Below are positions 1 through 39,193 of a stretch of DNA of 39,193 nt, piece by piece. How positions within the stretch are numbered: the first letter of the stretch is position 1; each line of letters begins with the position of its first letter. The DNA comes from Chiloscyllium plagiosum (lineage: Eukaryota). The stretch spans positions 4,083,232-4,122,424 of the forward strand of contig NC_057756.1 of the NCBI RefSeq assembly GCF_004010195.1, read 5' to 3'. The notes beneath the pieces were generated by a model. The model searched no databases, had not been told where the DNA came from, and saw only the letters and a list, made by a program, of their open reading frames with translations. The position numbers and the translations under genes were made by a program.

Positions 1-80
1 GTAGGTGCAACTGTCTGTCTGATCGTTTTGTGGTTCTGCTCGTTTCTTCCGTGAGTTTGATGTCCTTCAATGTGGTTTCT
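1..80 (-). mobile_element. Inverted fragment of the N-terminal region of a Penelope-like element, abutting the + strand copy
   Basis: Reverse strand reads ETTLKDIKLTEET..., with the A/C-rich bias of the adjacent + strand element; strand bias flips at ~80. Runs off the window edge. Confidence 0.55.
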
Positions 81-1557
81 ACCCGGAGCACCAACTTACA
101 GACTGGCCGGAGAACTACACGCAAGACTGAAATACCTAGTAGAAGAGTCACAGCACTCCATCCATTCCACCCAGTATTTCCTAAAAATCATCAAAAACAC
201 CAAAATAGCAGAAGACGAAATAATGATCTCATTCGACGTAACAGCACCTCTCAACTCCATCAACATCGACCTGGCAAAGGAAACACCTACCACACTTTGA
301 GAAGAGACCATCACACACTCCAAACACCATTGATCACATTACCAACGAAAACATCACGAAGCTACTGGACCTGTGCCTCAGCAGCCGCTTCACCTTCAAT
401 AACATAATCTACAAACAAACCAACGGCACACCCATGGGATCTACGCTATCAGGATTCATGGCAGAAGCGATAAAGCAAAGACTAGAACAAACAGCCCTAC
501 CAATCATCAAACCAAAACTCTGGGTCCGCTACGTAGATGACACCTTTGTCATCACAAAACGAAACAAAACAGGAGAGAAATTTAAAATGGTCAACAACAC
601 TCTCACAGGCATAACGTTTACCAAGGAGGAAGAAACCGAGAACAAACTCGCATTCTGGGACGTCACAGTCGAAAGAACGGACAATAGAGAACTACAAACC
701 TGCACATAAAGAAAACCAACAAACACTGAACAAATACTTAACTACACCACAAAAACGAAGCTATATCAGAACACTATTCCAATGAGCCACATCACACTGC
801 AGCATAGAGGAACTACGAAAAACAGCGGAGAACCACCTATACAATGTATTCAAGAAGAACGGATACTCAAAAAATACAGTCCGCAGATTCCTCAAGAACA
901 AACCAGGACAAGCAGACCAAACACAGCCAGAAACCCTAACCACCTTAGCATACATCAAAGAAGTTTCACAAATGACAGCCAGACTACTAAGACCCCTCAG
1001 AATCCTAGTAGCATACAAACCCACCAACACTCTCAAACAAAAACTAACAAACTTAAATGACCCAGTACATCCCATGGACAAAACCAACATCATCTACAAA
1101 ATTCCATGCAAGGACTGCCAGAAAAACTACAAGGACAAACAAGAAGAAAGTTAGCCACCAGGATACGCGAACACCAGCTCGCCACAAAAAGACACGACCC
1201 TCTCTCCCTCGTAGCCCGACACACGGGGGAAGAAAACACGATTTCGACTGGGACAACACATCTATCCTGGGACAGGCTAAGCAAAGACATGCCAGAGAAT
1301 TCCTAGAGCCCTGGCATTCCAACCACAACGCCACAAACAACACATAATGTAGATACCATCTATCAACCCCTCAGAAAACGAACAGGAAATGACATCACCA
1401 CAAACCCCAGGAAACCCATCCAGGAGAAACATATAAATAGAAAGCAGGAGACAACAGCGTTGCTTCACTTGGAGGTCGCCATTGATGATGTTCTCTGGCC
1501 AGGGAATGAAACGTCTGGATATCAAACCTACAGCCCAGCGAGGACACCTACACCCTA
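81..1557 (+). mobile_element. Penelope-like retroelement (RT + GIY-YIG endonuclease), decayed, with 3' end
   Basis: Frameshifted ORF pieces: PGAPTYRLAGEL, MISFDVT, NGTPMGSTLSG, WVRYVDDTFVI (YVDD at 530-541), FTKEEE..KLAFWDV, NIIYKIPCKDCQKNY, GQTRRKLATRIREH, FDWDNTSILGQAKQRHAREFLE. Confidence 0.93.
1474..1522 (+). ncRNA. Minimal hammerhead-ribozyme-like motif in the Penelope 3' end (core position C3 mutated)
   Basis: cca-TTGATGA-t-[gttctctgg|ccagggaat hairpin]-GAAA-c-GTC-tgg; the flanking cca/tgg can pair as stem I. Confidence 0.55.
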
Positions 1558-1559
1558 AA

Positions 1560-2665
1560 GTTGTATACGTATGATTGGTTAACTAGGATATATTAGATGG
1601 ATTCCAGGAAGAGGAACCATTAATATATAAAATTTGTTTGAATTTGGGAGACAGAGGGTGGAGGTAGACTGTTTTTTTAATTGATTGGAGACCCTTGGCA
1701 ACGCTGTGGTACAAGGATTGGTGATGGGTTCACAACTTTTTAGCATTCATACCAATGATCTGGACGTAAATATATGATGATTGTTTAGTAGGCTTTCAGA
1801 CAATACCAAAGTTTTCTGTGTCGAAGGCAGTGTAAAATGTCATCACAGAGTCCAATTTGACCGAGATCAAATGGGACGATGGGCTAAGAAGTGACAGATG
1901 GTGTTTAATTTAGGTAGATGCGAGGTATCGCATGTTGGCATTGCAAATCAGGGCAGGAATGAATGGTAGTGTCCTGGTGTCTATTGGCAAACAATGGCAC
2001 CAAGTAGTACAGTTCCATTGTTCCTTGAAGGTGCAGTCAAAGATAGGTAGTTCAGTGATAAAGGCGTTTAGCTCACACCTTCATTACTGAGTGCATTGAT
2101 TATCGGAGTTGGGACGTCATGGTGCAGCTTTACAGCTAATTAGTTCGACCACTTTCGGTATATTGTGTTCAGTTCCCTTGCTAATGGAGAGATGTTGCTG
2201 AATTTGAAAGGGAGATTTCTGCAACACGGTTGACGCTGGGGTTGGACTCTCGAAGGAATAAGGAGGGACTGAATAATTTAAGGCAATCATGCCTGGCGTG
2301 TCAGAAGCTGATGGCTGACCTGTTAGTTATTTATCAAGTCATAAGGGCCCTGGATAGGATAATAGCGAAAGTATTTTAGACCCAATCTAGCTGTCATAGG
2401 CTTAATGTGAAGGGAAATATTTAAGGTCGTGACATGCAACTTTACACGCAGAGGGTAATGCATGTATGGAATAAACTGCCAAACTAAGTGGCAGACGCTG
2501 ATATAGTTAAAATATTAAATGTCATCTGGCTGCATTCCAGAATGCCATGGGTTTCCAGGGAGATGGGCCACATTCTGGCAAATAGGACTAGATTATTTTA
2601 GGTTATATGATTATTATGAACAAATTGCTCCAAAGTTCTGATTTCACGCTATGCACCTCTCTGGT
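1560..2665 (+). mobile_element. Old CR1/HER1-type LINE, 3' part of ORF2 and 3' UTR, heavily decayed
   Basis: Remnants of VPQGSVLG, INDLD, SKFADDTK (gtaggctttcagacaataccaaa), 'MVQLYS.LVRPL..YCVQF' and FTQRV; typical 3' tail near 2640-2665. Confidence 0.8.
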
Positions 2666-4629
2666 TCTTAACATCTGTTATTATTTTAATTCACAAACAT
2701 TATAGAAGACAAACAAATGAATGCTTTTATTTCCAATATGAATTATCAATACAAAAATGCAGGGTAACATACAGTGCTATCATCAAAATGTCCAACAAAA
2801 CATGAAGACGTCTTTGAATCTTTCAAAATCGGATGGAATTGTAATCAGGCAACATGGCTAGCTATCGAACTGAATTCCTAACAGATCATGTTTGCAAAGA
2901 TTCCTACTCAAAAAACAAACAGCATTCTATGCTGGTATCATCTGTTCATTTAATTCAGAACAGCAGGGTAGTTTCCTTCCACAGTTTAGCAGTACTAAAT
3001 TAGCTTTCCTAAAGTATCAGCCGAGGCCAAATGATGACACAATTTCGTCTAATATGTTTTAATTTGAACGATTCATTAATTAACTAATTGTTTCAAAACT
3101 GTGTACACCAACCAAAACAGAAATAGCAAACAACATTTTTTTCTTATATTTTTCTCAGAGTTAGAGAAAATGAAGAAAAATCGACTTGACACTGGTAAGA
3201 AAGCAGCTTCAGTCAGAGGTGTGTATTTCACATTTGTTCATTACTTATATTACCAAAACTGATGCAAATACTTTCCAGAAATTTCACACTTTGACAAATT
3301 CTTTGCACAAGAAGTGTATCAACTTTGTTCATGCAGAACACTTCGGAGCTCAAGTGACCAACTATCTTACCCCGGTTTTCAATTTGATCCTCCTCAGTTT
3401 CGTTGGAAAACGATCTCGTACAATAGATTTCCTTGGATATCGATTTATTGTGTAATATTTATTTTCTAATTACCATTATTCCAGCGAACGAATACAACAA
3501 ATGTCTCCAGAATTCAGCAAATGAGATTTGAGGGGATTTTTTATCCTTACCATCGTTGCTTATGAAATTATTCATCTTATGTTAGATTTTGATGAGCCAA
3601 CTATCTCAGTCAATAAATATTAAATGAAATCTTCCAACGAATCACCAAGCAAGGATGCATTGTGTTAATTATTCAACATAATTGTTCCACATATTCCCGT
3701 TAAGTAGTTATTTTAGGTTTCAAAGGCAAGTTGTTGGTAATAAGTCCATGCTTCACTCATCTGTTGATTGGAGTGTGTCATGGAGATAAGGGTGAGCAGA
3801 TGTCAACACACAGTGAGCATTATTGGATTTCTTACATTAGTAATTAGTAGATTGATTAATATTTCGTCCATCATCCAGCAACTAAAGGATAAATACAAAA
3901 TGTGTCAACATCAAACTTCGACAGAAACTATAACATTTATTAGTGGCAATCAATTACGAAGTAAAGAGGGCACTTTCCACTCAATCAGTCAAACATTCTA
4001 TTTAACGTTGTGAATAAATTTTCGAAGTTTCTAAATGATAATAAAAAAATGACTCTACTTGCATCATATTGGATACAAAGAATGTTTCAGGACGTTGCAA
4101 AAGTGGGGAAAAACAGACACATGTGCTGGAAAGGTGCAAGCCTTTGTAATCAGTAGGTTTTTTTCGATAATTCATGGATGCAACTGTCACATTTAAACAA
4201 TTTTGTGTTCCTCTCATAATTCCAGTTCGAGTGCCATTGAGACCAAAAGGTGAGCAAATGTGCATCAGATTCCAGAAAGATTTTCCCAGGCATCGTTCAC
4301 AATTGCATGCATCTGTTTATAAAAGATATGTTCATTACCTTTTTTTCAGGACAGGACTTTTTTTTTTCTTTAACATATTCGGAATTCTCCTTCTACTGAA
4401 AAGACGTAGAGAATCTTCTATTGTTTTGGAAACAAAAGGAAACTGCGAAGATTACATGTTTTGTTACATAGCATGGAGAACGATGAGATGATAGTATCCC
4501 ATGATATGGACACATGCTTAGAATATGTTGTCTTGTTGTGTTCAGAATTCCGCAACGACCTGCCAAACGTTTGAGCTGTGACTCTTAAATGTGTGGAAAC
4601 AAAATCACGTTACACATGAGCGATCTGGA

Positions 4630-5530: not shown

Positions 5531-5947
5531 CACTATGCTGTCAACACTGCTATGTCAATCTTAATTTACTTTCCAATACACAAAATTACCCACGGTACAT
5601 AACCATAAATAGGGTTCTATTGATTTGCGACGAGTAGCATTTAGTCAGTTATGACCACAGAAAGATTATTCAACTAAATCACTTCGTCAATCCCATCAAT
5701 TTGCGTTACCAGAATGTGAAAAGCGCTGCAATTTAGACATCATTAGTTGCACATTGCGCAGAGTTCAGAAGGAGAGGCATTTTATTTGAACATTTTCCAG
5801 TGCAGTGTGATTTCTTAACAAAAAGCAGAATATTTTAAGAAGTTTGAAAATCAAAACAAATTTGAAGAAAGAAACTAAGAGTTCCCTATAGTTAATCTGC
5901 AACATAGAGCGGAGACATTTACTAACAGAAATGTTTACTTTGCAAAA

Positions 5948-6620
5948 GTGAGCTCTGCAGATGCTAGAAACCAGAGTTTAGATCAGAGTGGTGCTGCAAA
6001 AGCACAAAAGGTCAGGAAACATCCGAGGATCAGGAAAATTGACGTTTCGGGCAAAACTCCGTCATCAGGAATAGAGACATGAAACATCCAGGGTGGAGAG
6101 ATAAATGGTGAGTGTGGGAGGTGGTGCTGGAGAGAAGTTAGCAAAGAGTACAATTGGTGAATGTGGGTTGGAACGGAGGTAATAGGTCAGTGAGGATGGT
6201 GGGGGAAGATAGCAAAGCATACAATAGGTGAATGGGGTTGGAGATGGAAGTGATACGTCAAAGGGGAGTGTGGCGCTGATAGTTGGGAAGGGGGATTGGC
6301 AGGTAGGACAGGTCATGAGGACAGTGCTGAGCTGGAAGATTGGAACTGAGTTAAGGTAGGAAAAGGGGAAATTAGGTAACTGGTGAAGTCGACATTCATG
6401 CTCTGGTTTTGAAGTGTTCCATGGCGGAATATGCGTTCTTTCTCCAGGTGTCGGGTGTTCAGGGAGCAGAGGTGGAGCAGGCAGAGGACCTGCATATCCT
6501 TGGCAGAGTGGGAGAGGGAGTTGGAATGTTGGGCCAAAGAGCGGTGGGCTGATTGGTGTGGGTGTCCTGAAGATGTTCCTGAATATCTCTGCGAGGAGGC
6601 GTCCAGTCTGCCCAATGTTT
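5948..6620 (-). mobile_element. Penelope-like element, second family: GIY-YIG C-terminus plus 3' terminal region
   Basis: Minus-strand pieces NIGQTGRLLAE, EHLQDTHTNQP, AQHSNSLSHSAKDMQVLCLLH...HLEKERIFRHGTLQ..MNVDF, followed by a pyrimidine-rich UTR ending ...agcatctgcagagctcac. Confidence 0.88.
6036..6072 (-). ncRNA. Minimal hammerhead ribozyme motif in the Penelope terminus
   Basis: Minus strand attc-CTGATGA-cggagttttgccc-GAAA-c-GTC-aatt: intact CUGAUGA and GAAA core, short imperfect stem II, GUC cleavage triplet. Confidence 0.7.
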
Positions 6621-6654
6621 ACTTCCATGCCCTGTCGCCAATTCCCCATATCTC

Positions 6655-7021
6655 TCGGGTCCAAACGGGAGAGGGTGACCAGCCTCAAGTCGTTGTCCAT
6701 GTAGGTACCAACGACAAGGGTAGAAAGAGAGATAGGGATGTAAGGCAGTATTTCAGGGAGCTGGGGTGGAAGCTGAGAGGTAGAACAAACAGTGTTGTTA
6801 TCTCTGGATTGTTACCTGTGCCACGTGATAGCGAGGCAAGTGATAGGGAGCGATATCAGTTGAACACGTGGCTGAAAGGATGGTGCAGGAGGGAGGGTTT
6901 CAGGCTTTTGAACGCTTGGGGCCCATTCTGGAGAAGGTGGGACTTGTATAAACAACACGGTCTTCACTTGAACCAGAGGGGTACTACTATCTTGGGAAAT
7001 TTGGTGGTGCTATTCGGGTGA
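6655..7021 (+). pseudogene. CR1 ORF1 C-terminus, SGNH/GDSL esterase-like domain
   Basis: QPQVVVHVGTND, VVISGLLPVP, LNTWLKGWCRREGFRLL, WDLYKQHGLHLNQRG (blocks III and V of the SGNH fold). Confidence 0.85.
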
Positions 7022-7109
7022 GATTACACTAGATCAGCAGGGGGATGGGAACCGGAGGTGTAGCTGCAGTACACAGGAGGATGAGAGTAGGAAGGACAGG
7101 GACAGGATG

Positions 7110-9887
7110 TCAGGGTCACAGGTATATGATGGCAGACAGCAAACTGGTTTGAAGTGTATCTACTTCAATGCCAGAAGTATCCGAAATAAGGTTGGTGAGT
7201 TTGCAGCATGGATAGGTACCTGGGACATCGATGATGTGGCCATTTCCGAGATATGGAAAGAGTAGCATGAGGATTGGATTTTGCAGGTTCCAGGGTTTAG
7301 ATATTTCCTTAAAAACAGGCAAGGTGGTAAAAGAGGCGGAGGCGTGGCCTTGTTAGTCAAAGATAGTATAACGGTGGCTGACAGAACTTTTTATGAGGAC
7401 ACGTCTACTGAGGAAGAATGGGCTGAGGTTAGAAACAGGAGAAGAGAGGTCACACTTCTTGGAGTTTATTTATAGGCTTCTGCAGAGTTCCAGTGAGATG
7501 GAAGAGAGGATTAGCAACATCATCTGAGGTAGGAGTGAAGGGAACAGAGTGGTCATTATGGGCGACTTTAACTTCCCCAACATTGACTGGGAATGTTATA
7601 GCTCTGGATCTGTTTTTGTTTCCAATGTGTACAGGAGGGTTTCCTGACACAGTATGTCGAAGGGACGACAAGAGGGGAGGCCACACTGGATCTCCTTCTT
7701 CGTAATGAGCCAGGACAGCTGTTTGATTTAGTTGCAGGTGAGCTCTTTGGAGAGAGTGACTATAATCCAGTTACGTTTAGTTTTGCAATGGAAAGGGATA
7801 GGTACATGCCAAAGGTTAAGAGTTATCGATGGGGCAAGGGCAATTATAATGCAATTAGGCAAGAATTGGGATGCATAGAATGGGGTAGCAAAATGCAGTG
7901 GATGCAGACAATCTAAATGTGGATTTGGTTTAAGGAACATATATTATGTGTCCTGGATAGGTATATCCCTGTCAGGCAGGGAGGAAGTGATAAGGTAAGG
8001 AAACCATGGTTTACTGCAGAAATTGCATCTCTTGTTAAGAAGAAGAAAGAGGCTTATGTGTTGATGAGGCAAGATGGTGCAGATGAGGCGATGGAGAGTT
8101 ACAGATCAGCTAGGAAGGATTTAAAGAAGAGTTAAGAATAGCAAAGAGAGGATACGAGCAGTCTTTAGCAAATAGAATAAAGGCGAATCCTAAAGCTTTC
8201 TATAGGTATGTGAGGAGTAAAAGGATGATTAGGGTAGGAATAGGGCCAGTCAAAGACAGAAGTGGGAAGTTGCGTGGGGACACCGTGGAGATTGGAGAGG
8301 TGCAAAATGAACATTTCTCATCAGTGTTTACTCAGAAAAAGGAGAATATTGTAGGGGAGAAAAGTGAGATACGAGATATTAGACTAGAAAGAATTGAGGT
8401 TAGTTACGCACAGGTGTTATCAATTCTAGAAGGAGTGAAAGTAGACAAGTCCCTGGGCCGAATGGGATTTATCCGAGGATTCTCTGGGAAGCTAGAGAGG
8501 AGATAGCAGAGCCCTTGGCTTTGATATTTGTGTTGACATTGTCTACGGGTTTAGTACCTGAAGACGAGGGGATTGCAAATGTTGTCCCCTTGTTCAAGAG
8601 GGGCAGCAGAGATTACCCAGGTAATTATAGACCACTGAACATTACTTCTTGTTGTAGGAAAGGTTATGGAAATAGTTATAAGAGATAAGATTTATTATCA
8701 TCTAGCAAGCAACAATTTGACTTCAGATAGTCAACATGGTTTCATCAAGAGCCAGTCGTGTCTCACAAATCTCACTGAGATTCTTGAGAAGGTGACCAAG
8801 AATGTAAATGAGGATAGGGCAGTTGACGTGGTATACCTGGACTTCAGTAAAGCCTTTGATAAGTTTCCACTTGGTATGCTGATGGAGAAAATACAGAGGC
8901 ATGGAATTGAGTGTGATTTAGCAGTTTGGATTAGAAACTGGCTTTCTGGAAGAAAGCAGCGAGTGGTGGTTGATGGAAAATATTGAGTCTGGAGTCTAGT
9001 TACTAGTGGTGTTCCACAATGATCTGTTTTGGGACCTCTGCTGTTTGTCATTATGTCTTAGACGTAGGCAGAGGTGGATTGATTAGTAAATTTGCAGACG
9101 ACACTACAGTCAGTGGAGTAAAAGGCAGTTTGGAAGAATGTTACAGGTTGCAGGGGATTTGTATAAACCGCAGAATTGAGCTAAGATGTGGAAAATGGAG
9201 TTCAATGCAGCTAAATGTAAGTAGATGCACTTTGGGAAGCATGACAGGTTGGCAGAATACTTGATAAATGAAAAGATTCTTGATAGTGTGAATGCGTAGA
9301 GGGATCCTGGAGTCCATGTGCATCGATCCCTGAAAGTTGTCAACCAGGTGGATAGTGCTGTTAAAAAGGCATATGGTGTGTTAGGTTTCATTGGTCGAGG
9401 GATTGAGTTCCAGAACCGCAATATCATGCTGCAACTATACAAAACGCTGGTGCAGCCACACTTGGAATATTGTGTACAGTTCTGGCCGCCCCATTTCAAA
9501 AACTATGTGGAAGCATTGGAAAAGGTGCAGAGGAGTTTTACCAGAATGTTGCCTGGTCTAGAGGGGAGGTCCTATGAGGAAAGGCTTAGAGACTTGGGTC
9601 TTTTCTCATTTGAAAGAAGGCTAAGGAGGAATTTGCACGAAGAGCAGAGGTCTAGTTAGGTTAACAGAGAAAGACTTTTTCCTATGATGTTGACATCAGC
9701 TTGTACGAGAGGGCATAACTACAAATTGAGGGGTTATAGATCTAAGACTGATGTCAGAGGCAAGTTCTTTACACAGAGAGTGGTAAGGGAGTGGAATACT
9801 CTACCTGCTAAGGTAGTCAACTCATCCACATTAGGGAGAATTAAACAATTCTTAGATAAGCTCATGGATGATTTTGGAATAGTGTAG
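7110..9887 (+). pseudogene. CR1 ORF2 (APE endonuclease + reverse transcriptase), multiple stops and frameshifts
   Basis: CIYFNARSIRNK, GKRGGGVALLVK, VVIMGDFNFPNIDW, PWFT, QHGFIKSQSCLTNL, VDVVYLDFSKAFDK, ISKFADDT (FADDT at 9091-9105), LYKTLVQPHLEYCVQFW, FFTQRVVREWN. Confidence 0.93.
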
Positions 9888-10574
9888 ATGGACAAGCTGA
9901 GAAAAGTCCACAGGTCGGCGCAACATCGAGTGCCGAAGGGCCTGTACTGCGCTGTATTGTTCTATGTTCGAAAATACTCCTCTGCAAGCAAGAAAATAAC
10001 GTCCTTATCTGTGCAACCAATCCAATGCGGCGAAAAAGAAAAAATGCTGCCAAGCTGAACTTTAATCAAACACGTACTGGCACGATTCTCCCTGGGACAG
10101 TATTAGCATCGACTGCATTCAAAGCTCTGATAAGATTCTCCAGCTGCAAGACGTTTACATCCCCGATTTCGCAATGCAGAACAAAACTGTTTCACTCTCG
10201 TCTGATCATCATATGCACCGCTGTAAATCCTCATGGAAATAGTCTCAGAATCTCAGCATCGCAGAGCTGCAAATTCTCTGCATTAATGTAACATAACTCG
10301 AAACAGCCTGGAATGAGTTTCTTGAAGAGTCACTACACTAGAGCAATATTGGAAAGCGTCAAAAAATAACACACGTCCAAGTAAACAGATTGATTTAATG
10401 AGTAAGAGCTGTTTAACATTTATATGCTTCGAGTTTTCTTGAAATATATATTTGTTAATCGCAAACGTGCTCATTTCCAGTGAGAAAGGGCTGAAAAATC
10501 ATTCATATTAAATCAGTTTTTTGTGAACATTCTCTGTTTAACTTAAAGGAGAAAGATTTGAAGCGGTAATTTAT

Positions 10575-11932
10575 AATCAGCTCAGTTTCTCCTGGTCTCA
10601 GCTGAAAGTTGAGAACAGGCCTCTTCCCTGGCTGTAATTTAATATGTATAAAATTGTGACTCCTGGGAACCCAAGTTTCAGAGAGACAGGCGGGACTGCG
10701 GACACTGTGGTAGATCCGTGAGCCTGAGATTATTGTGGAAAACCTGTGCACAGAACTGGCTCCCCCAAGGGCAAAGAATTCGATACACGGAGCGATGTGG
10801 TGAATAACAAGTCCAGAAAGTGGACATGAAAGCATGATTAGGAATCAGCATTGGCCATTGTGCTGAGAAACACCGAAATTCGTTAATACAGCGGCAAGCA
10901 GGGTAAGGGGGCAGAATGTTCTTTCAACGACAAATGGGGACAGCCGTATTCTAGTACAATGGGTGCTTTTACTGCACAGGAGAGGAGGAAAAACTCTGGT
11001 AATCCTGCAGTGACTGGGGGTTCAATGATAAGTGGAAAAGCTAACTGCTTCTGTGATCAATATCATGGGCGCCACAAGAGATTCAGAAGTGGAAGAGTAA
11101 TTATCGAGGAGTTGTTTTTTCCTTGGTTTCAAGGAGAGCAGAGTAAATATAACCTTTGGTTCTGAAATGGAAGATGGAGTGTTGAGGAGGAAGTATAAAA
11201 GTTGGAATTCAGAGATAATGGTATCAGGATTGTAAACATAGTCAGGTGCTGCTCAGTGTCTAAATAGTGTGTATTTTGGGTGAAAATGTAAATGTTGAGA
11301 TGTTGCTATGATGTGTCCTTCTGTGTCCAACATTATTGGGAACAGATCTGGCAGAAGTGGGAACCAAGAAAAAAAAGTCTAAACAGTTCACTTCTTGGCA
11401 TTATATGGACTGATTTTCCAGAGAGTATTTGATTTTTCCATTGTGGAGGGTTTGAAATGGGAAGAAAGAAAGAGGGGACTGCAGAAGAAAAAGAGAATCA
11501 AAGTTTAGAAAATTAGAAATCTGCTATGTACACAATTAATGTACACGAATCAAAGAGATCTGACTTAAATTGCGGAACATTTCTACCAAAGCAATCCTTA
11601 TCCATATAAACAGGCATAATAATTTAAAATATGGTTTGGACTACAGCACAGAGCTGCAGTACCAGAGGTGAGAAAGGAGTATACAGTCGCACTTTCTTTT
11701 TTGGGAAACAATGAAAAAAAAAATGGTTGGGTACTATTGTTAGATAAAGTAACATTAGCACAACAGTCAGGAAAATACTAACTCCAGTAAATCGAAATCC
11801 TTACAGGTCGATCACAGAAACAGAAGGAACAGGAAACAAGAATCACGTTTTATGCAATCGTGCAAAAGAATGATAATTTCAGTGAAATTGCAAAATAGCA
11901 AGTTAGAGACAAAGCTATGATTATTGGAGTTT
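10575..11932 (+). mobile_element. Old CR1 LINE, 5' half (ORF1 and start of ORF2 endonuclease); interrupted at ~11932
   Basis: LRTLW*IREPEIIVE (ORF1 coiled-coil region), AQERRKNSGNPAVTGGSMISG (decayed 'AIVIGDSIVRG'), IMVSGL, GGWVLL-type segment, ending in MIIGVF (decayed 'VIMGDF'). Confidence 0.7.
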
Positions 11933-12053
11933 TTAGCGCAAACATGCTGGTTTCCCATCACCAAGTACACATTTACTTTCCTGTGCATAGCATATTGACT
12001 GCAGCCTAGAAGCGAAAATTGTTCCCAGAATTGAGGAGATTGCAATCTGCTGG
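11930..12053 (-). mobile_element. 3' part of a short LTR-like host element (split by the nested array)
   Basis: Minus strand ccagcagattgcaatctcctcaattctgggaac...ggctgcagtcaatatgctatgcacaggaaagtaaatgtgtacttggtgatgggaaaccagc. Non-CR1 sequence directly after the CR1 break. LTR identity is inferred from layout and recalled similarity to shark solo LTRs. Confidence 0.55.
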
Positions 12054-13450
12054 ATATGAAATATACAAATATACATAATTGTCAATAGTTAACAGTAAGC
12101 AGTGATACACAGTGAAAGGAGGACGAGAACTAAACCCCAAGCCCCACCATAGAACTAATTTACAAGGAAATGCAGACAAACCTTAATTTTTCAAAGAGGA
12201 AACAGGAGACACAAATGCATACAAACAAACCAATCAAGCAAATAATAAATTGATTCATACGACACACAGACCCCTGGCAAAACAAATGACTTACTCCATT
12301 CAAAATTAGGAAGCTCCAAGGCAGCCCACCACTCTACCTGTTGCAGTTCGAACCTCACCATTACCCACTTCTGGCTCTCCTTCATCGCCACACACCTTAT
12401 AGCTTTCGGGCCGCTCCTTCTCACCTTCCAGCTTTCATTCCATTCTAAAGCACATAACAGCTCTCGGACGCCCCAAACAATTTTCTGGTCACCTCGAAGT
12501 AAGCCCGTCCCCTTACCTCCAAGGGACCTCCACAATGTAAGCCAACCATATTCAATCACTACCTATCGTCCGTCACTCAGAACTGTCTAGTCATCTTCTG
12601 GCTCTAGGAACGGCCAGCTCTCGTCATTATCTCCCCACCGTCCATCTCTCGTGACCGTGTACTCATCTTCAGGCTGACGGGTGCTTTATCCACCTTCCAT
12701 CTCTTGCGATGCCGACTAACCTTTCAGCTCTTGGGGCAGCCTTCCTACCTTGCAGCTTTCAGGATGACTGCTTTCGGACAACCGATATACCTTTTGGTTT
12801 TCAGAGCAATCTAATCACCGTCCAGGTCCCAGTAAGACTGCCAGACCCAGTGACACACAAGGCACATTGCAGGGAAAACAAATGAAAATCAAAAAGGCTG
12901 TGTCTATTAGTATAACAAAGTCCATACCTGAAGGCGGAGACTACGTCCGAAAACAGAGTCCACTTCAATACACAGAGTCCACTACAGAAGGCAGTGCATG
13001 TGAATTGGACAGGACACATATATTATGCAGTCTCCACAGTGGCCCATGCCCATACACAGAGACACAGTCAATTTGTAAAGGTGAAGCTGACTGACAGGGT
13101 TTAATCCAAGCAGGAAACAAAAAAAATTAAAACACATGAAAAATCAAGTGCAAACACTAAAAAACATATTAAAAGGGCCCAGCTCTGCCACAACATCATC
13201 ATTGTCTGTCCTTAAACAATAAAGGTTTAACAAACAGTCTGCAACCAACTAGTGCAATAAAGAAAAGCTCCATAATGAGAAATATAAAAAAAAGTACATA
13301 CTAGCTCTGTGGCCTGCCTGCTCAGAATCAGTTCTGAAAATGTAGTCTATAACACATAGTGGATGTGTGGACCTCCAGCACAGGAATCCGTTACCAGTTT
13401 CAAGGGTAGGCACTGGTGGTGGCCAGCCACATCAGAGTCTTTCCACAGAA
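12054..13450 (-). mobile_element. Insert A: ~1.4 kb non-coding putative non-autonomous retroelement
   Basis: Colinear similarity to inserts D and E (gaaatgcagacaaacc, gacacaaatgcatacaaac, agagtccact repeats, ataatgagaaatataaa); three ~55-bp units at 13292-13450; bounded by the junction motif. Confidence 0.7.
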
Positions 13451-13515
13451 CTGCAGTTATTCTCATCTCCTGTTATTTTTGTAAATTAACCTTCCTTAAA
13501 ATACAATGCATAAAT

Positions 13516-13520
<5 letters not shown>

Positions 13521-13565
<45 letters not shown>
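13521..13565. repeat. (TA)n microsatellite
   Basis: Uninterrupted TA run. Confidence 0.98.
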
Positions 13566-13568
<3 letters not shown>

Positions 13569-13811
13569 TGCAATACTACAGGAAAGCAGGGACGCAAACA
13601 CAAGAATTTCGAATTATCATCAAAATCAACAACAATACAGAAAACTATACAGAAGTCTTTCACAATTCACTGTCCACTGGAAAAAGTACCATAATTATAT
13701 TCGTACAGAAAATGAACCTTTACAGCCATCAGGCCTAAGTTGCCCAATGGGAAAATGCCGATATCATGTAGCTATAAAGCTTTACGCAGCACCTGAAATC
13801 ATGCATCACTT

Positions 13812-13915
13812 TTATGAATGGCTTGGATGAGGAAGTAGAAGGGTGAGTTGGTACGTTTTCCGATGACACAACAGTTGGTGCAGTTTTCGAAAAGTAGAGG
13901 GTTTATGTAGGTTGT
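13812..13915 (+). mobile_element. Short CR1 RT fragment inside insert B
   Basis: MNGLDEEVEG*VGTFSDDTTVGAV, matching INDLDEEVEGWVSKFADDTKVGGV. Confidence 0.75.
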
Positions 13916-14052
13916 AACTTGTCCAACATTCCAACTGCTGCTCTTCAGCCTTTCAGTTTCCAGTCTCCCTGCATACGACAGATGACTAACCCATCATAGG
14001 CTTGTTTTGCTCCTGGCCAGTCATTAGCAACCTGGCTACGGTTCGCACTGTG

Positions 14053-14101
14053 TAGATTAGATTAGATTACAGTCTGGAAACAGGCCCTTCGGCCCAACAA
14101 G
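14053..14101 (-). mobile_element. Extreme 3' tail of an HE1 SINE / HER1 LINE with (TCTAA)n tail
   Basis: + strand tagattagattagattacagtctggaaacaggcccttcggcccaacaag, the reverse complement of the shared LINE/SINE tail. Confidence 0.75.
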
Positions 14102-14914
14102 CCGCCCACAAATCATGTACTGACTGGCCATCCACTGGCTGGTTTCCAAAGGGCTGCCATTGATTGCCTGTTTCCCGGCCGCCCTGCATAACGATAGAAC
14201 ACCTCAGCCCACTTTCCTCAAGACCTGTCATCAGCCCTCGGGGTCTCGTCCGCCCTGCATTTTCATTGGAAGCACAGTCCCTCCATCCTCCAGGCCAGTT
14301 ATCAGTCCGCTGGCTCCAGGCTTCCCTGTGTACTGACTAGACCTCTGAGGCCAGCATTACTCTCATTTGGCCATCTGCTCTCCAGCTTATGGCCACCCAT
14401 GCAACATTGGATCGTACCATGCCTTCTGTCACGCAGACTGGATGTCGGCCATCAGGCAGCCTGCATCTGATGTTCTGATCCTAGAGAATGTGTTTTTGTT
14501 TCGAGAACAGAGTCCACATCCAAGAGCAGATCCTCCAAACCAATTGAAGTTCACACACAGATGCAGATCGATGCATATGTTTATGGTTTACTCACTCGAA
14601 CCGATTCCAACTGCGTAAGCATGTTCCATCAGGAAAGGCATGGTCATCACGCAGGGCAACCTGTGAGGGCACAAACCATAACACAACAGGTTATGGCATG
14701 TGACGTTACTGAGACACGATGGAACTCATATGTCTTTCTCACAGTGCCACAGGTTGTTGTCAGACAGTCCTCAAAACAAAAGAAAACCTAGAACAAGTAC
14801 TGGATACTTGGCTGGTCAGCTCAGGAATCAGTTACCAAATAGAACAATACACATTGCTTGTAGCTAGCTAACTCGAAGCCAGTTCACTGAAATGTGGAGA
14901 TTCTATTCTGTGCA

Positions 14915-15600
14915 TATACATATCATGTTTTTCTTAATTATTTTCTCTATCCCTTCATTAGACAAACCACCCTTTTGCCAAAGTACCTTGTGACAAAGCA
15001 GGTTCAGAGCCAGCAACGCTGATGTGTAAGCGAAGGTGGGGTGGAGGGTGGGGTGGCGGTGTAGGAATAAAATCAAAACACAATTAAGCAGGGAAATAAA
15101 TCACTCCATTCCCCATGTTGTCCACCTCTCCCTAAAGGCATCGAGTGCATTGGCGGACCCCACATACTACTTTTCCATGGACACCAGGGCCAAAACATAC
15201 CTGTGGAATAGGGACACGCAGTCGGCCATAACGAACCCCTCCACAGTTTGTTGCCTAGACTTATTAAACGCCTGCTTGTCAAGGCCAAGAGTCATATACA
15301 TGAAGAGATCCTCTGACCTGCCCGCTCTGGTCTGCACCAGATGTGCAAAGATCAGGAAAATGGGATGAAGTGCAATCAAAAGCAGAGGATAAGACCCATC
15401 AGGTAACTGAAAAAGAATGCAAATGCCCATACTGAAGACATACCACGGCACCGCAAAACAAACAGTTGGGCTGGGAGTCTGAAACCATCAAAGTCTGTAA
15501 TTGTGCAGGAATGCTCCCTGCAATGTATCCAAATCACCAAGTGAAAGAGGAAGGATCCCCGCGTAGAGAGCACCCCTGACACCAAGCTTTTCCGGTGGCA
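14915..15600 (-). mobile_element. Insert C: 5'-truncated L1-clade Tx1-type LINE (ORF2 C-terminal zinc-binding region, short 3' UTR, A-rich tail)
   Basis: Minus strand ALYAGILPLSLGDL, DSQPNCLFCG, LHPIFLIFAHLVQTRAGRSEDL..MTLGLDKQAFNKSRQ..EG..MADCVSLFHRYVLALVSMEK*..ALDAFRERW; tail gagaaaataattaagaaaaac at ~14927-14947. Confidence 0.85.
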
Positions 15601-15671
15601 CAATCACACACTGGCTGTGATCAGCAAGCTAGAGGTCTGTCCCCAAAACTGAGGAGAGTCTGATATCCTGG

Positions 15672-17071
15672 ATATTTATTTTTAGTTAAACTGTACAAAA
15701 CTGCAAACAGTCCACAGTGAACAGTAAACTGGAATTTGCAGAGGAAACGATCATCAAGGCAAAGTCCCAAACCACACCACAGAATAAATTCACAGGGAAG
15801 TGCGGATGAACCTAGACCCCACCTTCACTTGGCAAAGGAGAAACAGTAGACACAAATACATCCAAACCAGTCAGTTCAAACAAACAATAAAACTGTGGAT
15901 ATTACACAGGCACCCCTCTTAACCAGCAAACCACTCACTCCTCCAACCTTCTGGCTACTCAAATGCAGCTGGCTACTATGCTCCCCTCTGGTCTCAGTTC
16001 GCGCCACGCTCGTTCTGGTTCTCAGTCCGCCCTGACGTGACTTCCGAACACTTCTTGGACTGCTTGTCCCATTATTAGCCCAGGTCAGCGGCGATCACGA
16101 CAGCCTAGTCGCGTCCGGTTCTCTGTCACTTCAACCCACCATCCGACTTTTCATTGTACCAACGCGCCATACATATCTCGACCACAGCGCCGTACCTTCA
16201 GCGACTGCTGGGTTAGGCTATCACTAGACATCCCAGGGATGACAGTGCCTTGCACAAGTGCCTTCCAGTCCTCTACATACATTCAGGCCATGGGTCAGCC
16301 CTGACCCACCTTCAAGCTATCTCGAGGATAGCGCGTTCTGTTCCTTCATCAGGACGACAGCGCTAATGCTGAACTTCTCATGTTTCACCTATAGGAACGA
16401 CCGGCATCAGCATAGCCAACCATTTTTCTGGTTCTCTGGATGGCCGAAGTACCGTCCAGTTCTCGAGGTGACAACTTTCACAACGACATATGAACTTTCT
16501 GGCACACAGTAAGGCCTGTCACGTACAGGAACACAAACGACACAGTGCAGATAATGAAACCAACAATCAAAAATGCTGAGTCCATTTCCGAAGGAAGAGT
16601 CCACTCCAAAAGTCCGAGTCCTCTCCACAAGGCAGCGAATGCTCTCATCACAGGTGTTAAGTCTCTACAGTTGTCTCGTTAATCCAGAGTCCCAGGCGCA
16701 CTCACAGATATGTGGTTCACTTGTAAAGGTGCAGCGGACGCCAACCCAACACAAAAATGTAATGTACACACTAAAAACCACAGTGCAATAGGCATGCCCT
16801 GTCACAAAATCAGCATGAACCTTGCTCAAAAGAAAATGAACACAATTACAATCGAGCTGCAATCAGCCAGGGAAACATTAGTTCCCTGGTGAGAACTAAA
16901 ATATAACAGTATACAATGACTGTGCGGAGAACCAGCACAGAAGTCAATTCTAAAAAATAAGAAGCTGTAACACACAGGCTGTGTAGAAGCCAGATCCGAG
17001 ATCTGTCCTCAAAAAGAGTAACAGGAACACACTGGATGTGGCGGCCAACAGAGGAATCAGTCAAGTGATTT
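15672..17071 (-). mobile_element. Insert D: ~1.4 kb non-coding putative non-autonomous retroelement
   Basis: Minus-strand 3' end ttttgtacagtttaactaaaaataaatat directly before the junction motif; colinear with A and E; three ~55-bp units at 16907-17071. Confidence 0.75.
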
Positions 17072-17092
17072 GAGGAAATTCTAATCTCCTGG

Positions 17093-18679
17093 TTAATTTC
17101 TATTTATCGTTTATTAAACTGCACAAAAAAGTCAACATTGAATAAGAAACAACAGATTGCCATCAACTGCAATTTACAAGGGAAAGGGGTGAAACAAACC
17201 CAAACCCCAACGTATAATCAGGGACATGCAGACAAACCCCCAAACCCACCTTCTCTCACCGAACAAGAAACAATCGTCAGAAATACATACAAAACAGTCC
17301 GATTAACTGAATAATAAATCAGTGCATGTAACATGGGCACCCTTGGTAAACCACCAAACGCCACTCCCCAACTTGTGACCACTCAAAGGCAGCCAGCTCA
17401 ACGTTCTTTTGGCTCTTGAAAACCCCATGTACCTTCCAGCTGCTGATGCATCCTCGCTCAGTTTCTGGTCAGCTATATAGCAGCTTATCCAGTTATCATC
17501 CCGGGACTACGGCGATCAGGACTGGCTACATACTTTCCGACTTTCTGATGCGCGCCTTTGCACCATCGGATTCTTAGTCTGCCCAACAAGCCTTCCGGCT
17601 TGTTGGGTTAGTTAGTCCTGGTACATTCACAGGACAACAGTGCATAGTCTGGCCTACCAAATATCAGCTCTTGGGCAGCCAAAACACATTCCCATTCTCC
17701 ATCCCTCTTCTGCACCTTGCAAGTCTCTCTCACTATGACACACAATTCTGCCCATGGACCGCCATGATACACCTTCCAGCCACGTCGAGAAAAGCCCATC
17801 ACACTCGGGATGATGGTGCTCATGATGACTTAACCACCTTCCAGATCACAGCGCGAATGGCATTGGGAGTGCCTACTCATTTGAACGTTTTCAGGATGGG
17901 ATATTCACTATTCAGTTCACTGGACGACATGCCACCGTCCGGCATTCAAGGTGACAGCTTTTAGGACACCTATAAATCTTTCAGCCCACAGTAAACCTGC
18001 CACACACAGGGGCATATAAGACACAGTGCAAATGATAACATTGATAATCAAAAAGTCTATTAACAAGGTGGAGACCACTTCCAACGTAAAGTCCACTCTG
18101 GGAGGCAGAGCGTACTCCCGAACGCAGACTCTATTCCCGACGGCAGACTCCACTATATTTTGCCACGTATACTTCAGTATGCAGCAAATGCACACCTCCC
18201 AGCGCACACACAGGTGTTCAGTCTCTTCAGAAGCGTGGTCAATCCACAAAGCGCCAGGACCACTCCCAGAGATAGAGTTCATCCATAATGTTGCAGTTGG
18301 CACACAGGGGATCAGTCCAAACACAAAAAAGGTGAAAACAAATGAAAAAGAGAAGGACAGACACCAAAAGCCATCGGACAAGGGCCAAGCCCTGCCACAA
18401 AATCATTGTAATTCTTGCTCAGAAATAAAACAAAGACAGTAACACACCGGCTGAAAACAGCCAGTGAAATACCAAAACAACAGTTCCCTAATGAGAACTA
18501 AAATACAACAGTATACAGTGGCTCTGCAGCTAGTCGGCCCTCTCAGAAATCAATCCTCAAAAACGTACAACACGAACAAACTGTCAATGTGGAGAGCAAG
18601 CTTAGAGATCAGTTCTGAAAAAATAATAACAGTAACACATGGCTGTGGCCACACAGCTCAGGATTCAGTCAATTGATTT
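17093..18679 (-). mobile_element. Insert E: ~1.6 kb non-coding putative non-autonomous retroelement
   Basis: Minus-strand 3' end ttttgtgcagtttAATAAAcgataaatagaaattaa (AATAAA at 17110-17115); colinear with D; three ~55-bp units at 18509-18679. Confidence 0.75.
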
Positions 18680-18800
18680 GAGGAGATTCTAATTTCCGAG
18701 TAATGTTTTTGGGATTGAGCTTTCCTGATTATCCCAGGTTAACAACTTCAATCCAGGACCCAATTGTCAACGAAGTCCACCTGATTCCAATCAATATATA
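18680..18800 (-). mobile_element. 5' (promoter-side) part of the LTR-like host element
   Basis: Minus strand tatatattgattggaatcaggtggac...ctggattgaagttgttaacctgggataatcaggaaagc...aaaaacattactcggaaattagaatctcctc. Lies between the last insert and the resumed CR1; decayed CCAAT-like (taatcagg) and A-rich TATA-position segments. Confidence 0.5.
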
Positions 18801-23269: not shown

Positions 23270-23935
23270 GTTAGCTAGCAGAGATGGTGGGGGGTTTGTT
23301 GTCAGACATTTCATCACAATTCCAGGTAACATCATCTGGTGAAGGGTTAGTGTTCTGTACCTCTTGCTATTTATATGTCTTGATTTCTTTAGTGTGTGAT
23401 ATAATTTCCGGTTTTGTTTCTCAAAGTTTGGTCAATGGGGTACGAAGTGTAATACTAGATTTGTGGACGATAATGATGCTTCGTGGCTGGAGTGGTCTGC
23501 TGGTCATCTAAGAAATGACTTTCATGTATGTTAGCATGGCTAGCGGGTATGTTGTGTTTTCCTGTTTGGGTCCGTTCTGCAGGAACCAGCAGACTGCGTT
23601 TATCAGGTGATCATTGCTCATGAATGCATTATATAGATGTATTTCCCCGGCTTGTCATAGGTCCGGGATGTGGCAATGCGTCATGGCTTGTTTAAATACT
23701 GTCCTGTTGCAGCTCCATTTGTGGGTGTTGAATGGTTACTTCTGTAGCTGAGTATCTGATATATGTTTGTTGTTTCACTGTTAACGCCGGTCTGCAATTC
23801 TCCATTGGCTTTTTGTTCAAGCATAATGTCGAAAAAGGGGAGTCGGATATTGTTCTCTTCCTCTTTTGTGAATATTGCACCGGTGAGGATATTGTTTATG
23901 TTTGTGATGATTTTAAAGAACCTGACACTTACGTC
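23270..23935 (-). mobile_element. Penelope-like element (first family): RT C-terminus, linker and 3' end, lacking the GIY-YIG core
   Basis: INNILTGAIFTKEEENNIRLPFFDIMLEQKANGELQT..QILSYRSNH; its end matches the reverse complement of 1380-1530. Confidence 0.85.
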
Positions 23936-24372
23936 CAGCAGAACGAATGTAATATTGAAAATACCATACAAAGCCTGCAACAAACATTACTTTGGCCAAA
24001 TCAGCACGAAGCCAACCAACAGAATCCAAGCGCATTATTTAGTCATCAACAGGCGTGGCCAACTATCACTCGTATCCATACACACAGATGAAGAGGGACA
24101 CCAGTTTTTTTGGGACAATTCATCCATGCATAGAGGCCTCAGGCCTTCAACCTGTAATTCCATCTACAAACATATAGACGTAGAACCCATTTAACAACCT
24201 CTTAGAAATGAAACCGGAAATGTTATTACTCAGTACGACAAACGTAGACACATAAATAGCAAGCCCGACAGGACACCACTCTTCACGGGCAGCTCACACA
24301 TGATGTTACTAAGCATGACGACCAAACTTCTTAGAACAAACCCACTAGTTCAGCAAGCAAAGCAATAACATG
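23936..24372 (+). mobile_element. Penelope-like element (first family): GIY-YIG domain and 3' end, inverted relative to its neighbour
   Basis: SRTNVILKIPYKACNKHYFGQIS...LSLVSIHTDEEGHQFFWDN, SIYKHIDVEPI; 3' end resembles 1350-1550. Confidence 0.85.
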
Positions 24373-32589: not shown

Positions 32590-33100
32590 CATATTCTTTT
32601 TGTATAGGATATTGGTCAGGCCTCTTCTGCAATAATGTGTCTATTTCTACTAGCCTAGTTATAAGAGAAATACTTTAATTTCAAGGGGGATCAGAAGAGA
32701 TGTTGTTGGTCTAGGAAGTTTTGAGATATAATGAGAGACTGGACATTAGGGGGTGAGAGACGAGTCTATCGAAAGTTATAAAATACTGAGGTATACTGAT
32801 AGAGTTAATGGTAATTTTGTTTTCTTTGAAATAGGGGATTTCAAACACTTGGACACATTTTTACTGTGCAAGATATGATGGGCATCGAAGGAGGTTCGTG
32901 TGTGGAATGAACCTCCTGAGGAAGTGTTGGACCTGTATACAACTACAAGGGTTAAAAGACATTTGGATAAGTACATGACTATTAAGGTTTTGGAAGGATG
33001 TGGGCCAGGAACAAGCATGCGGTCCAATTTTATTTTGGGAAAATGTTCAGCATGGACAGGTTGGAACGAATGGTCTGTTTCCATCCTACATGCGTATATG
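32590..33100 (+). mobile_element. CR1 LINE 3' fragment
   Basis: LYRILVRPLLQ*CVYF, VWNEPPEEV, KRHLDKYM, tail tggtctgtttccatcctacatgcgtatatgac. Confidence 0.8.
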
Positions 33101-34049
33101 ACATACAAAATCACAGGAATAAATCTCATAACCACAACATGGAACACATTTTACAGTTTGCTTTTGTGGTCAGTGTTAGATTAAAGGAGCTGTAATTCAG
33201 CCTTTCGAATGAGTATCTCTGATGAAAATTTTGCTTTAATTTCATCAGGCACAAGCACCAACATTGAGATTTACAGACTATTAACGCAGAAGGATCCACA
33301 TCTATATTGGACAGAGAACCATGCTCCAAAGAACTATGTAACTATTGTGAACAGGTTTATGCACTCCTCGTGCATGAGTTTCATCTGTCTAGTCTTTATC
33401 TGTATCATCCCATTGGTAATATCATAGTTAGCCATGTGATCGCCCATTCCACCATTCTTCTAAACTCTGCTTTACTTCGTCCCACCAAATGCAAAGGTCA
33501 GTGGAGCCATTCCAGATTCAAACTAGTAAAATTTCATTGCAATCGCTTCATAGCCAGAACATCTTCCCCGAGACCAGGAAATCAAAACTGCAGGGAGTAC
33601 TCCAGTTGTGGTCCTCTGAGTCAATGAACCATTCGATGAAACTTAAAGCGATGTCAAAGTAATGCTTGTTGCTGGGATAAGCATTTTTTTTCTCTCTGTT
33701 AAAAGTTAACACCAAGGGCAGACCTCTATCAGGTTTATTCAGCATTGTGTCGTTTTACTTTGCAAAATTTGGCATGCCTTTGCATTTTGTTAATACAACA
33801 CTATCTTGGAGCATCATCAGTTGCTGTGCATGACTTTTGTTTGAGTGTTTTATGATACTGCTGAGAGTTGAGGCAAATGCAATTTTTATTTTAAAGTACG
33901 GAGTGTGCTTTGCTTGACAATCTTTTAAATTTACCAGCAAAATTGATAACCAAAGGAAGCTCGAATCACAGTGCGTCTTGGCTGAACAGAAGTTTGGTCG
34001 TTACGAAAACTTAATAACGTGGTCATCGAGCAAGTCAATGGGCTACAAG

Positions 34050-38954: not shown

Positions 38955-39161
38955 ATAGAGTCATAGGGTAGTACAGCACCGAAGTAGACACTTCAATTCA
39001 ATTCGTCCCATGCCAATCACATATACTAAAGTAATCGAGTATCATTTGCCAGCATTTGGCCCATACCCCCGAAACCTTCCTGTTCATGTATCCGTCCAGA
39101 TGGATTTTACATTTTGTTGCTGTGCAAAACTCCACGACTTCCTCTGGCAGGTTGTTCCATA
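38955..39161 (-). mobile_element. CR1/HER1 LINE 3' end
   Basis: Reverse complement reads WNNLPEEVVE...HLDGYMNRK..GYGPNAGK, then the 3' UTR and tail. Confidence 0.8.
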
Positions 39162-39193
39162 TTCTGGATTAGTGGTGCTGGAAGAGCACAGCA
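39162..39193 (-). mobile_element. Terminus of a Penelope element of the family at 5948-6620, running off the window
   Basis: tctggattagtggtgctggaagagcacagca resembles 5978-6008 (tagatcagagtggtgctgcaaaagcacaaaa). Confidence 0.6.

Follow-up and report, generated by a model that had tools for sequence, protein, structure and literature searches.

Background

Insertion of the Xenopus LINE Tx1L duplicates 23 bp. The hominid element SVA is a composite, non-coding, Pol II-type retroposon of about 2 kb that is not site-specific and whose LTR-derived part lies at its 3' end, unlike the non-coding elements described here, in which LTR-derived sequence forms the 5' head. Apart from being composite and non-coding, SVA resembles these elements, as they are read here, in its movement in trans by an L1-clade LINE and, in one of its subfamilies, in the use of an upstream promoter (PMC4494074).

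The targeting of LTRs by Tx1 elements is not new in kind: crocodilian Tx1 families target other transposons and two of them, Tx1-8_Crp and Tx1-4_AMi, target LTR retrotransposons (Kojima 2015, PMC4494074). The text consulted gives no site within the LTR for either family, whereas the site described here adjoins a TATA-like box. The same text describes, for Tx1-Mar and SINEU, non-autonomous passengers that, like those found here, share the LINE's target and often lie in tandem; in both systems such heads also occur on some Tx1 families, with recurrent 5' additions, and for SINEU-1, as for the family termed here N, no common 3' tail is reported and transcription from the flanking target is a possibility. 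SINEUs differ, however, in that they have U1 or U2 snRNA heads and are mostly shorter than 500 bp, whereas the passengers found here have heads derived from the target LTR, lengths of 1-2 kb and VNTR-like middles (PMC4494074).

Tx1L likewise has two ORFs, a sequence-specific APE endonuclease and a transposon as its target, but that target, Tx1D, is a DNA transposon rather than an LTR promoter (PMC1950540, PMC4494074). For R2, which inserts into 28S rDNA, joining of the 5' end by homology has been modelled, as is proposed here; R2 differs in its restriction-like endonuclease, its Pol I co-transcript and its ribozyme, and in that the homology usually lies upstream of the nick, whereas here it would lie downstream (Eickbush 2013, PMC3774820). 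Unlike R2, the locus gave no ribozyme match in an Rfam scan of the window, a term used here for the whole 39,193-bp stretch of Chiloscyllium plagiosum DNA that was analysed.

The reading favored here, to which a probability of roughly 70% is given, is that one solo LTR within this window was struck five times at a site by its TATA-like box, by a Tx1 fragment and by four copies of two passenger families, for which movement by Tx1 proteins and transcription from the promoters of host LTRs are both likely. Such a reading would turn the known Tx1 habit of aiming at transposons into a testable promoter-capture cycle, and it bears on a question that SINEU had prompted, namely how passengers of this kind come to be transcribed. 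For the 5'-joining step of APE-type LINE integration, which is poorly understood, hundreds of natural junctions become available for study. A further addition is that of site-specific, non-coding retroposons of 1-2 kb with LTR-derived heads, none of which were found in the literature searched; nor did that search, which lay outside subscription journals, Repbase and Dfam, yield a description of LTR-headed Tx1 passengers or of this target site in cartilaginous fish.

Results and discussion

One solo LTR split by five inserts

The array consists of five minus-strand inserts that split a single Ty3/Gypsy solo LTR of about 230 bp just past its TATA-like box, which the target site adjoins. As the original prediction had it, the stacked inserts, of 1608 (E), 1421 (D), 758 (C), 1440 (B) and 1420 bp (A), are flanked by six minus-strand copies of one motif, starting at 18700, 17092, 15671, ~14913, ~13473 and 12053. 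An LTR profile run on the window places the left half of the host at 18795-18640 and the right half at 12057-11938, with four pieces of ~60-80 bp between them. The six motif copies are 49-74% identical in pairwise comparisons over ~60 columns; genome-wide, the motif has 659 matches with at most one mismatch, versus 0 for a reversed control. The features of the locus are as follows:

18701..18795, minus strand: left (U3) half of the Ty3/Gypsy solo LTR that acts as host; it has CCAAT-like boxes and a decayed TATA-like box (LTR profile 4-98; alignment with intact LTRs)
17093..18700, minus strand: insert E, a member of family N, with a site copy and an LTR-derived head (18700-18640), more head monomers, a GC-rich middle and an A-rich tail
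15672..17092, minus strand: insert D, also of family N, with its site copy and head at 17092-17028
14914..15671, minus strand: insert C, in which the site copy and the head (15671 to ~15606) are fused directly to a broken C-terminal fragment of Tx1 ORF2 (~15600-15040), with a shortened 3' UTR and an A-rich end
13474..14913, minus strand: insert B, which belongs to the other non-coding family (M) and has its head at 14913-14850; later repeats break it up, as does an (AT)22 run (locus L175 matches at B 11-407, 490-709 and 1110-1359)
14045..14109, plus strand: fragment that arrived later inside B, presumably of SINE type by its resemblance to such elements (very high contig depth)
13806..13918, plus strand: LINE reverse-transcriptase fragment, likewise a later arrival inside B, which by resemblance we take to be CR1/L2-like (translation; repeat coverage)
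12054..13473, minus strand: insert A, the most decayed copy of family N; site copy and head (13473-13408)
11938..12053, minus strand: right (R/U5) half of the host LTR, starting at the target site (LTR profile 95-213)

Contigs from two DNA runs (of one study, perhaps the assembly's own samples) span the B/C, C/D and E/LTR junctions; in the same runs no contig spans D/E with 31 letters on each side, and the A/B and A/LTR junctions lie outside the stretch compared. The host LTR's own 5-bp duplication is unrecognisable in the window, where a tandem repeat finder reported no array comparable in scale to the inserts. The Rfam scan of the window left all six repeats without a match, which rules out a cluster of snoRNAs, miRNAs or ribozymes there. 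The copies in the window are old and broken, and a host function is not implied.

Uninterrupted host elements, which the original prediction had proposed to seek genome-wide, do exist; these LTRs are intact, with TG...CA termini and what look like host duplications of 5 bp. Upstream of three of these lie a polypurine tract (PPT) and a pol tail, the integrase tail running into the PPT and LTR, and upstream of two lie protease, RT, RNase H and integrase pieces in the Gypsy order, with no env. RT_RNaseH scored above its Pfam cut-off and the other domains were assigned by motif, Pfam having matched 0 of 2 integrase, protease and RT pieces in one run and 1 of 5 in another. Judged by its ends, short duplication, PPT and PR-RT-RH-IN order, the host that had been called LTR-like is a Ty3/Gypsy LTR.

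A Tx1-type LINE that targets the site

A Tx1-type LINE targets this one LTR site genome-wide, as had been supposed: its 3' end is followed within 35 nt by the exact site at 1,124 places, versus 5 when the site is scrambled. In a set of 29 loci chosen instead for their similarity to ORF2, an LTR piece follows within 450 bp downstream at 12, a short copy of the site alone follows at 4, and 2 end in gaps; the remaining 11 of the 27 assessable ends have neither an LTR piece nor a clear site, so that targeting is not absolute. The proportions for the family of insert C (12/27 with an LTR piece and 16/27 with at least the site) exceed the >20% of flanks of one sequence type by which Kojima recognises target preference (PMC4494074).

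Insert C is, as first described, a 3' fragment of Tx1 ORF2 unrelated to the other inserts. Within its family, an APE domain at the ORF2 N-terminus (PF03372, 31.7 bits against a cut-off of 24.5) matches the L1 ORF2p endonuclease, RVT_1 (12.8 bits) and the ORF1 zf-CCHC (17.1 bits) both fall under cut-off in broken frames, and homologues bear PF00078 and PF03372. The probable placement of this LINE in the Tx1 clade draws partly on C-terminal motifs that we take to be characteristic of it and partly on the endonuclease loop, which in one copy (L136) aligns best with that of a PDB chimera having the Tx1L loop (2v0r; 32.1 versus 29.0 bits for L1). Four near-full-length Tx1 copies (L134, L136, L176 and L207) bear LTR-derived heads like those of the passengers, the head of L207 being 88-94% identical over 81 bp.

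Two passenger families

Inserts A, D and E are members of a dispersed non-coding family (N) of 1.0-2.0 kb elements that consist of head monomers, a VNTR-like middle and an A-tail. The earlier grouping of A, B, D and E as one related set stands for A, D and E, which align across their length at 58-65% identity, but not for B, which is no member of that family: it shares the head and a GC-rich middle, but its body and 3' end are those of a second family, M (L175, L057, L060). In 27 copies the longest sense stop-free stretch is 70-179 codons. Of 22 loci chosen by the 3' end of A, the profile places an LTR piece next at 11 and inspection by eye does so at another 4; flanks are unrelated at 3 and unassigned at 4; A-tails were found at the target site.

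Inserts A, B, D and E combine the traits of trans-mobilised retroposons of the SINEU or SVA type: non-coding sequence, an A-tail, 5' truncation and the site and duplication length of a partner LINE, whose proteins likely moved them. Because N has no 3' tail in common with the Tx1 copies compared, the mobiliser is inferred from the site and duplication length only. Two other identities were considered and rejected. As SINEs, these inserts would be expected to have tRNA, 7SL or 5S heads; their heads have no Rfam match and instead match the LTR profile, and T-runs lie inside them. As an internally deleted Tx1 (of SIDE or HAL1 type), family N would share more than the head with the four Tx1 copies compared; no body or 3' tail match was found. 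Two single-cell poly(A) runs, of which only 2% and 6% were read, yielded reads of the SINE fragment and a few strays, or nothing, which is too little to test LTR-driven transcription.

It is hardly credible that the array arose locally from a single unit, whether through tandem duplication or through unequal crossing-over. An AU test does not reject an A/D/E clade (p 0.17 and 0.13), but these three never form one clade in 200 bootstrap trees from either end, and their mutual identity is lower than the 68-76% that they show to copies elsewhere; moreover, the array includes three unrelated bodies (N, M and Tx1), and every insert has its own A-rich end. A locus-specific clade, the outcome that had been named in advance as counting against repeated targeting, was not found: the nearest copies lie elsewhere.

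Origin of the longer repeat

The original prediction further held that each insertion had left a target duplication of ~70 bp. Of 68 left halves of LTRs, 30 break off 0-13 nt past TATAA, where a truncated Tx1 copy or, in five cases, a truncated N copy follows, and 23 end at +58 to +69 or +75 to +80, before a headed element; the 5'-truncated Tx1 and N copies have target duplications of ~13-16 bp. For one LTR type (LTR1; 45 pairs at 35 loci), minor alleles of the local LTR recur in the upstream copy at 8/28 for +1-9, 7/57 for +10-22 and 33/153 for +23-42, all above permutation, and at 8/135, the permutation level, for +43-62; for a related type (LTR2; 15 pairs), the values are 5/13, 9/30 and 5/23 up to +39 and 0/15 and 6/43 beyond, one pair (L211) having a variant in common near +55. 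In both sets the pairs with shared variants are few, old and non-independent, and apparent sharing can arise from the subtype structure of the LTRs.

One subfamily bears a composite head, in which LTR2 +1-79 is followed by LTR1 +24-65 with a fixed junction at 22 places; of 19 such loci compared, 17 are in LTR2 hosts. The second head of this subfamily was gained from a related LTR, which is also where copies of the subfamily lie. Because the LTR1 portion lies inside LTR2 hosts, it cannot be a target duplication; conversely, at L216 an LTR2-derived piece lies within an LTR1 host.

A long true target-site duplication, in which full-length RNAs would be accompanied by a second-strand cut lying 65-80 bp downstream and the repeat would be wholly target-derived, accommodates the agreement between head and host type at those 17 of 19 loci and the sharing of local variants past +13, to about +40. 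It is nevertheless very unlikely: truncated copies of the same families have the short duplication, neither data set has excess sharing past +40, the composite-head junction is fixed, and the LTR2 piece in an LTR1 host and the LTR1 sequence in LTR2 hosts both speak against it, the latter already contradicting it for the LTR1 part of composite heads. The longer repeat is instead largely an LTR-derived head carried by the elements, autonomous Tx1 copies included. In headed copies the target probably supplied the proximal part, up to roughly +40, so that for this part of the repeat the idea of a long duplication holds.

A proposed insertion cycle

The use of an LTR piece as front end, beside a TATA-like box, suggests that the inserts borrow the promoter of their host. 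In the proposed cycle, the Tx1 APE endonuclease would nick the TATA box on its T-rich bottom strand, and reverse transcription would be primed by the A-tail of the RNA. The duplicated site would be regenerated on both sides and struck again, resulting in head-to-tail stacking. A full-length copy, lying behind an intact U3 and TATA, would be transcribed from ~22-26 nt past TATAA, so that the first ~40 nt of its RNA would be LTR R. The cDNA end may then anneal to the matching R of a new target, giving a junction that is target-derived to a variable point (about +40) and donor-derived beyond it, which would resemble a 65-80 bp duplication. Occasional non-homologous joining or template jumps could add head monomers or the head of a related LTR.

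A more tentative extension, held at somewhat below even odds, is a three-tier parasitism, in which a promoterless Tx1 and at least two SVA-like families take over the Gypsy TATA promoter, the head acts as a homology key permitting full-length insertion only in a matching LTR subtype, and a new head let one lineage change LTR.

The same targeting could operate with no dependence on the host U3 and TATA, the head either acting as an internal promoter or being left behind by template jumps or by read-through from the stack. Head monomers do recur inside N, and L1 has repeated 5' monomers. In LTR1 hosts, inserts that consist only of an LTR2-type head (L006, L158) contain sequence from about +8, upstream of the start proposed above, so that some RNAs began earlier or arose by read-through from a stack; SINEU heads, moreover, are ascribed to template switching in Kojima's text (PMC4494074). 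Such independence from the host promoter is, however, unlikely, since full-length heads match the type of their host LTR, and since the point near +24-26 at which a TATA-driven start would be expected is also where internal monomers and the LTR1 portion of the composite head begin (17 of 25 pieces, from a script that listed only starts at +19 to +30). Of the junction type that combines a short duplication with a head from +24, only one example was seen, at L158.

Five inserts at one LTR site

The original prediction described five minus-strand inserts (A-E) stacked in an LTR-like element and bounded by six copies of one motif, and this array is borne out by motif positions, by a profile from intact LTR copies, and by contigs (two DNA runs of one study) that span three of its junctions. 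The window search places all six motif copies on the minus strand, bounding inserts of 1608, 1421, 758, 1440 and 1420 bp (E, D, C, B and A in minus-strand order); the profile finds four internal LTR pieces between two halves of the host LTR:

18795-18640, minus strand: left LTR half
12057-11938, minus strand: right LTR half

Inserts A, D and E are alignable end to end (identity 58-65%). Insert C was correctly read as a Tx1 ORF2 fragment: it translates into a broken Tx1-type ORF2 C-terminus and, as at loci L166 and L188, consists of a 'head' (an LTR-derived 5' part) fused directly to a Tx1 3' fragment. Within the 3.56-Gb assembly the motif, allowing at most one mismatch, has 659 matches versus 0 for a control.

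Ordinary decayed repeats occupy other parts of the window (86-2678, 5926-9975, 23460-24194, 32776-33184 and 38951-39193); frames 242-709 and 23760-24194 resemble what we take to be Penelope-type RT/GIY-YIG, and frame 6413-7021 what is presumably a CR1/L2-type esterase ORF1.

The host LTR and its target site

Immediately upstream of the motif lies LTR sequence in 10 of 29 inspected motif loci and, in the remainder, A-rich 3' ends from several different elements. The uninterrupted host element, sought as a check, exists: intact LTR units measure ~225-235 bp with TG...CA ends, and of two related subtypes, LTR1 and LTR2, the latter (3,060 motif matches) is uninterrupted at the site in 28 of 30 inspected copies. 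Apparent 5-bp host duplications surround four intact copies, a polypurine tract and pol tail accompany three, and two are preceded by pieces of protease, RT, RNase H and integrase arranged as in Ty3/Gypsy elements, among which RNase H alone passed Pfam. A TATAA-like word precedes the site in both subtypes and lies 27-30 nt from an initiator-like word; judged by sequence, the two words may form the LTR promoter. Further subtypes with variant site sequences are also targeted (L004, L030, L023, L155, L216), and there the upstream and downstream LTR copies agree in subtype.

A site-directed Tx1-type LINE

Near-full-length LINE copies encode an ORF1 with a CCHC-like knuckle and an ORF2 whose APE domain exceeds the Pfam cut-off; the endonuclease loop aligns best with an L1 chimera carrying the Tx1L loop (PMC1950540). 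Its closest endonuclease homologues are from horn shark and skate and, like the repeats of the window, indicate a cartilaginous fish. One protein from skate, annotated as 'zinc finger protein 830' (P0010), bears this Tx1-type endonuclease at 54% identity and probably results from a gene model that was merged with a repeat.

Exact genome matches to the Tx1 3' end pattern number at least 4,921, and the exact site follows within 35 nt in 1,124 cases versus 5 for a scrambled site. Among 29 loci chosen by ORF2 similarity, an LTR piece lies downstream in 12 and a short site copy alone in 4, 2 run into gaps of the assembly, and in 11 neither is clear. These counts uphold the proposal of a Tx1-type LINE aimed at one LTR site, and the array as a product of target-specific retrotransposition is real and well supported. 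Stacks made up of truncated copies are frequent, and autonomous copies bear the same heads as the non-coding passengers.

Such targeting is a new example of a kind already known: Kojima 2015 (PMC4494074) describes crocodilian Tx1 families with a preference for LTR retrotransposons, and SINEU passengers that have target and heads in common with Tx1-Mar and form tandem stacks. What sets the present case apart is its SVA-like passengers with LTR-derived heads and the change of head from one LTR subtype to another; neither this target site nor LTR-headed passengers were found in the papers searched.

Non-coding passengers

Inserts A, D and E are members of a dispersed family (N), of which 23 distinct full copies (1.0-2.0 kb) were taken from 38. 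These copies combine head monomers, spaced by T-rich linkers, with a GC-rich repetitive middle, a 3' end of ~300 bp and an A-tail. Family N has no long ORF and nothing in common with the four Tx1 copies compared except the head. Among 22 loci chosen by the 3' end of A, the profile places an LTR piece next in 11 and inspection by eye in a further 4; the flanks of 3 are unrelated and those of 4 ambiguous.

Local tandem duplication would make A, D and E a locus-specific clade. Their identity to copies elsewhere (68-76%) exceeds that among themselves, and such a clade appears in 0 of 200 bootstrap trees (B excluded), which argues against it, although AU tests (p 0.17 and 0.13) do not reject the clade. 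Insert B matches a second family, present as a single insert in L175. Other A-tailed 3' ends, one SINE-like, lie upstream of the motif, at the same LTR site, in L036, L037, L044, L045 and L051, which suggests that there are additional passengers and that RNA recognition is relaxed.

Junctions: short duplications and heads derived from the LTR

The predicted ~70-bp target duplication at each insertion is not what the junctions indicate. Counting nucleotides past TATAA as +n, 30 of 68 left LTR halves stop at 0-13 nt, mostly +8 to +11, next to Tx1 pieces that lack their 5' end and five truncated copies of family N; together with the duplicated ATATAA, this end point implies a duplication of ~13-16 bp. 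Another 23 stop at +58..69 (LTR1) or +75..80 (LTR2) with a headed element next; in the remaining 15, either other events have broken the LTR half or the profile runs past its end.

In headed copies (45 pairs, 35 loci), minor alleles of the local LTR recur in the upstream copy above permutation at +1-9 (8/28), +10-22 (7/57) and +23-42 (33/153), and at permutation level at +43-62 (8/135); these are a small number of old pairs, not all independent, and some of the proximal sharing could come from subtype structure. The 15 LTR2 pairs follow the same gradient: 5/13, 9/30 and 5/23 up to +39, then 0/15 and 6/43. In place of the long duplication stands a short one, together with a head that comes from the LTR.

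Established TPRT would account for the T-rich-strand nick, A-tails, 5' truncation and re-use of the regenerated site. Full-length copies would be transcribed from the host U3 and TATA, starting ~22-26 nt past TATAA, and the head may then anneal to the target for 5' joining, by analogy with what is postulated for R2 (PMC3774820). Starts near +24-26 are seen in 17 of 25 pieces (LTR1 parts of composite heads and internal monomers), where only starts at +19..30 were listed. Against such a start, LTR2-type head-only inserts in LTR1 hosts contain sequence from about +8; hence read-through or earlier starts occur too.

Composite heads and head-only inserts

At 22 places in the genome the head is composite, with LTR1 +24-65 coming after LTR2 +1-79; the 19 loci fetched comprise 17 LTR2 hosts, 1 LTR1 host and 1 unassigned. 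Because it sits in LTR2 hosts, the LTR1 part cannot have arisen by duplication of the target.

A-tailed short inserts that are head only are numerous; some at the site are made of an LTR piece, 0-300 nt of N and an A-tail, in that order (L165, L169, L171, L184, L185). A family-N head monomer has expanded into a 49-bp tandem minisatellite in several small contigs and in L177 (G000:C15, ~1526800-1530750). Many ultra-short inserts combine a short site copy, 10-30 nt of internal Tx1 and an A-tail (e.g., L006:860-930). They are shortened at both ends and may have arisen when polyadenylated fragments of RNA were retroposed into this site.
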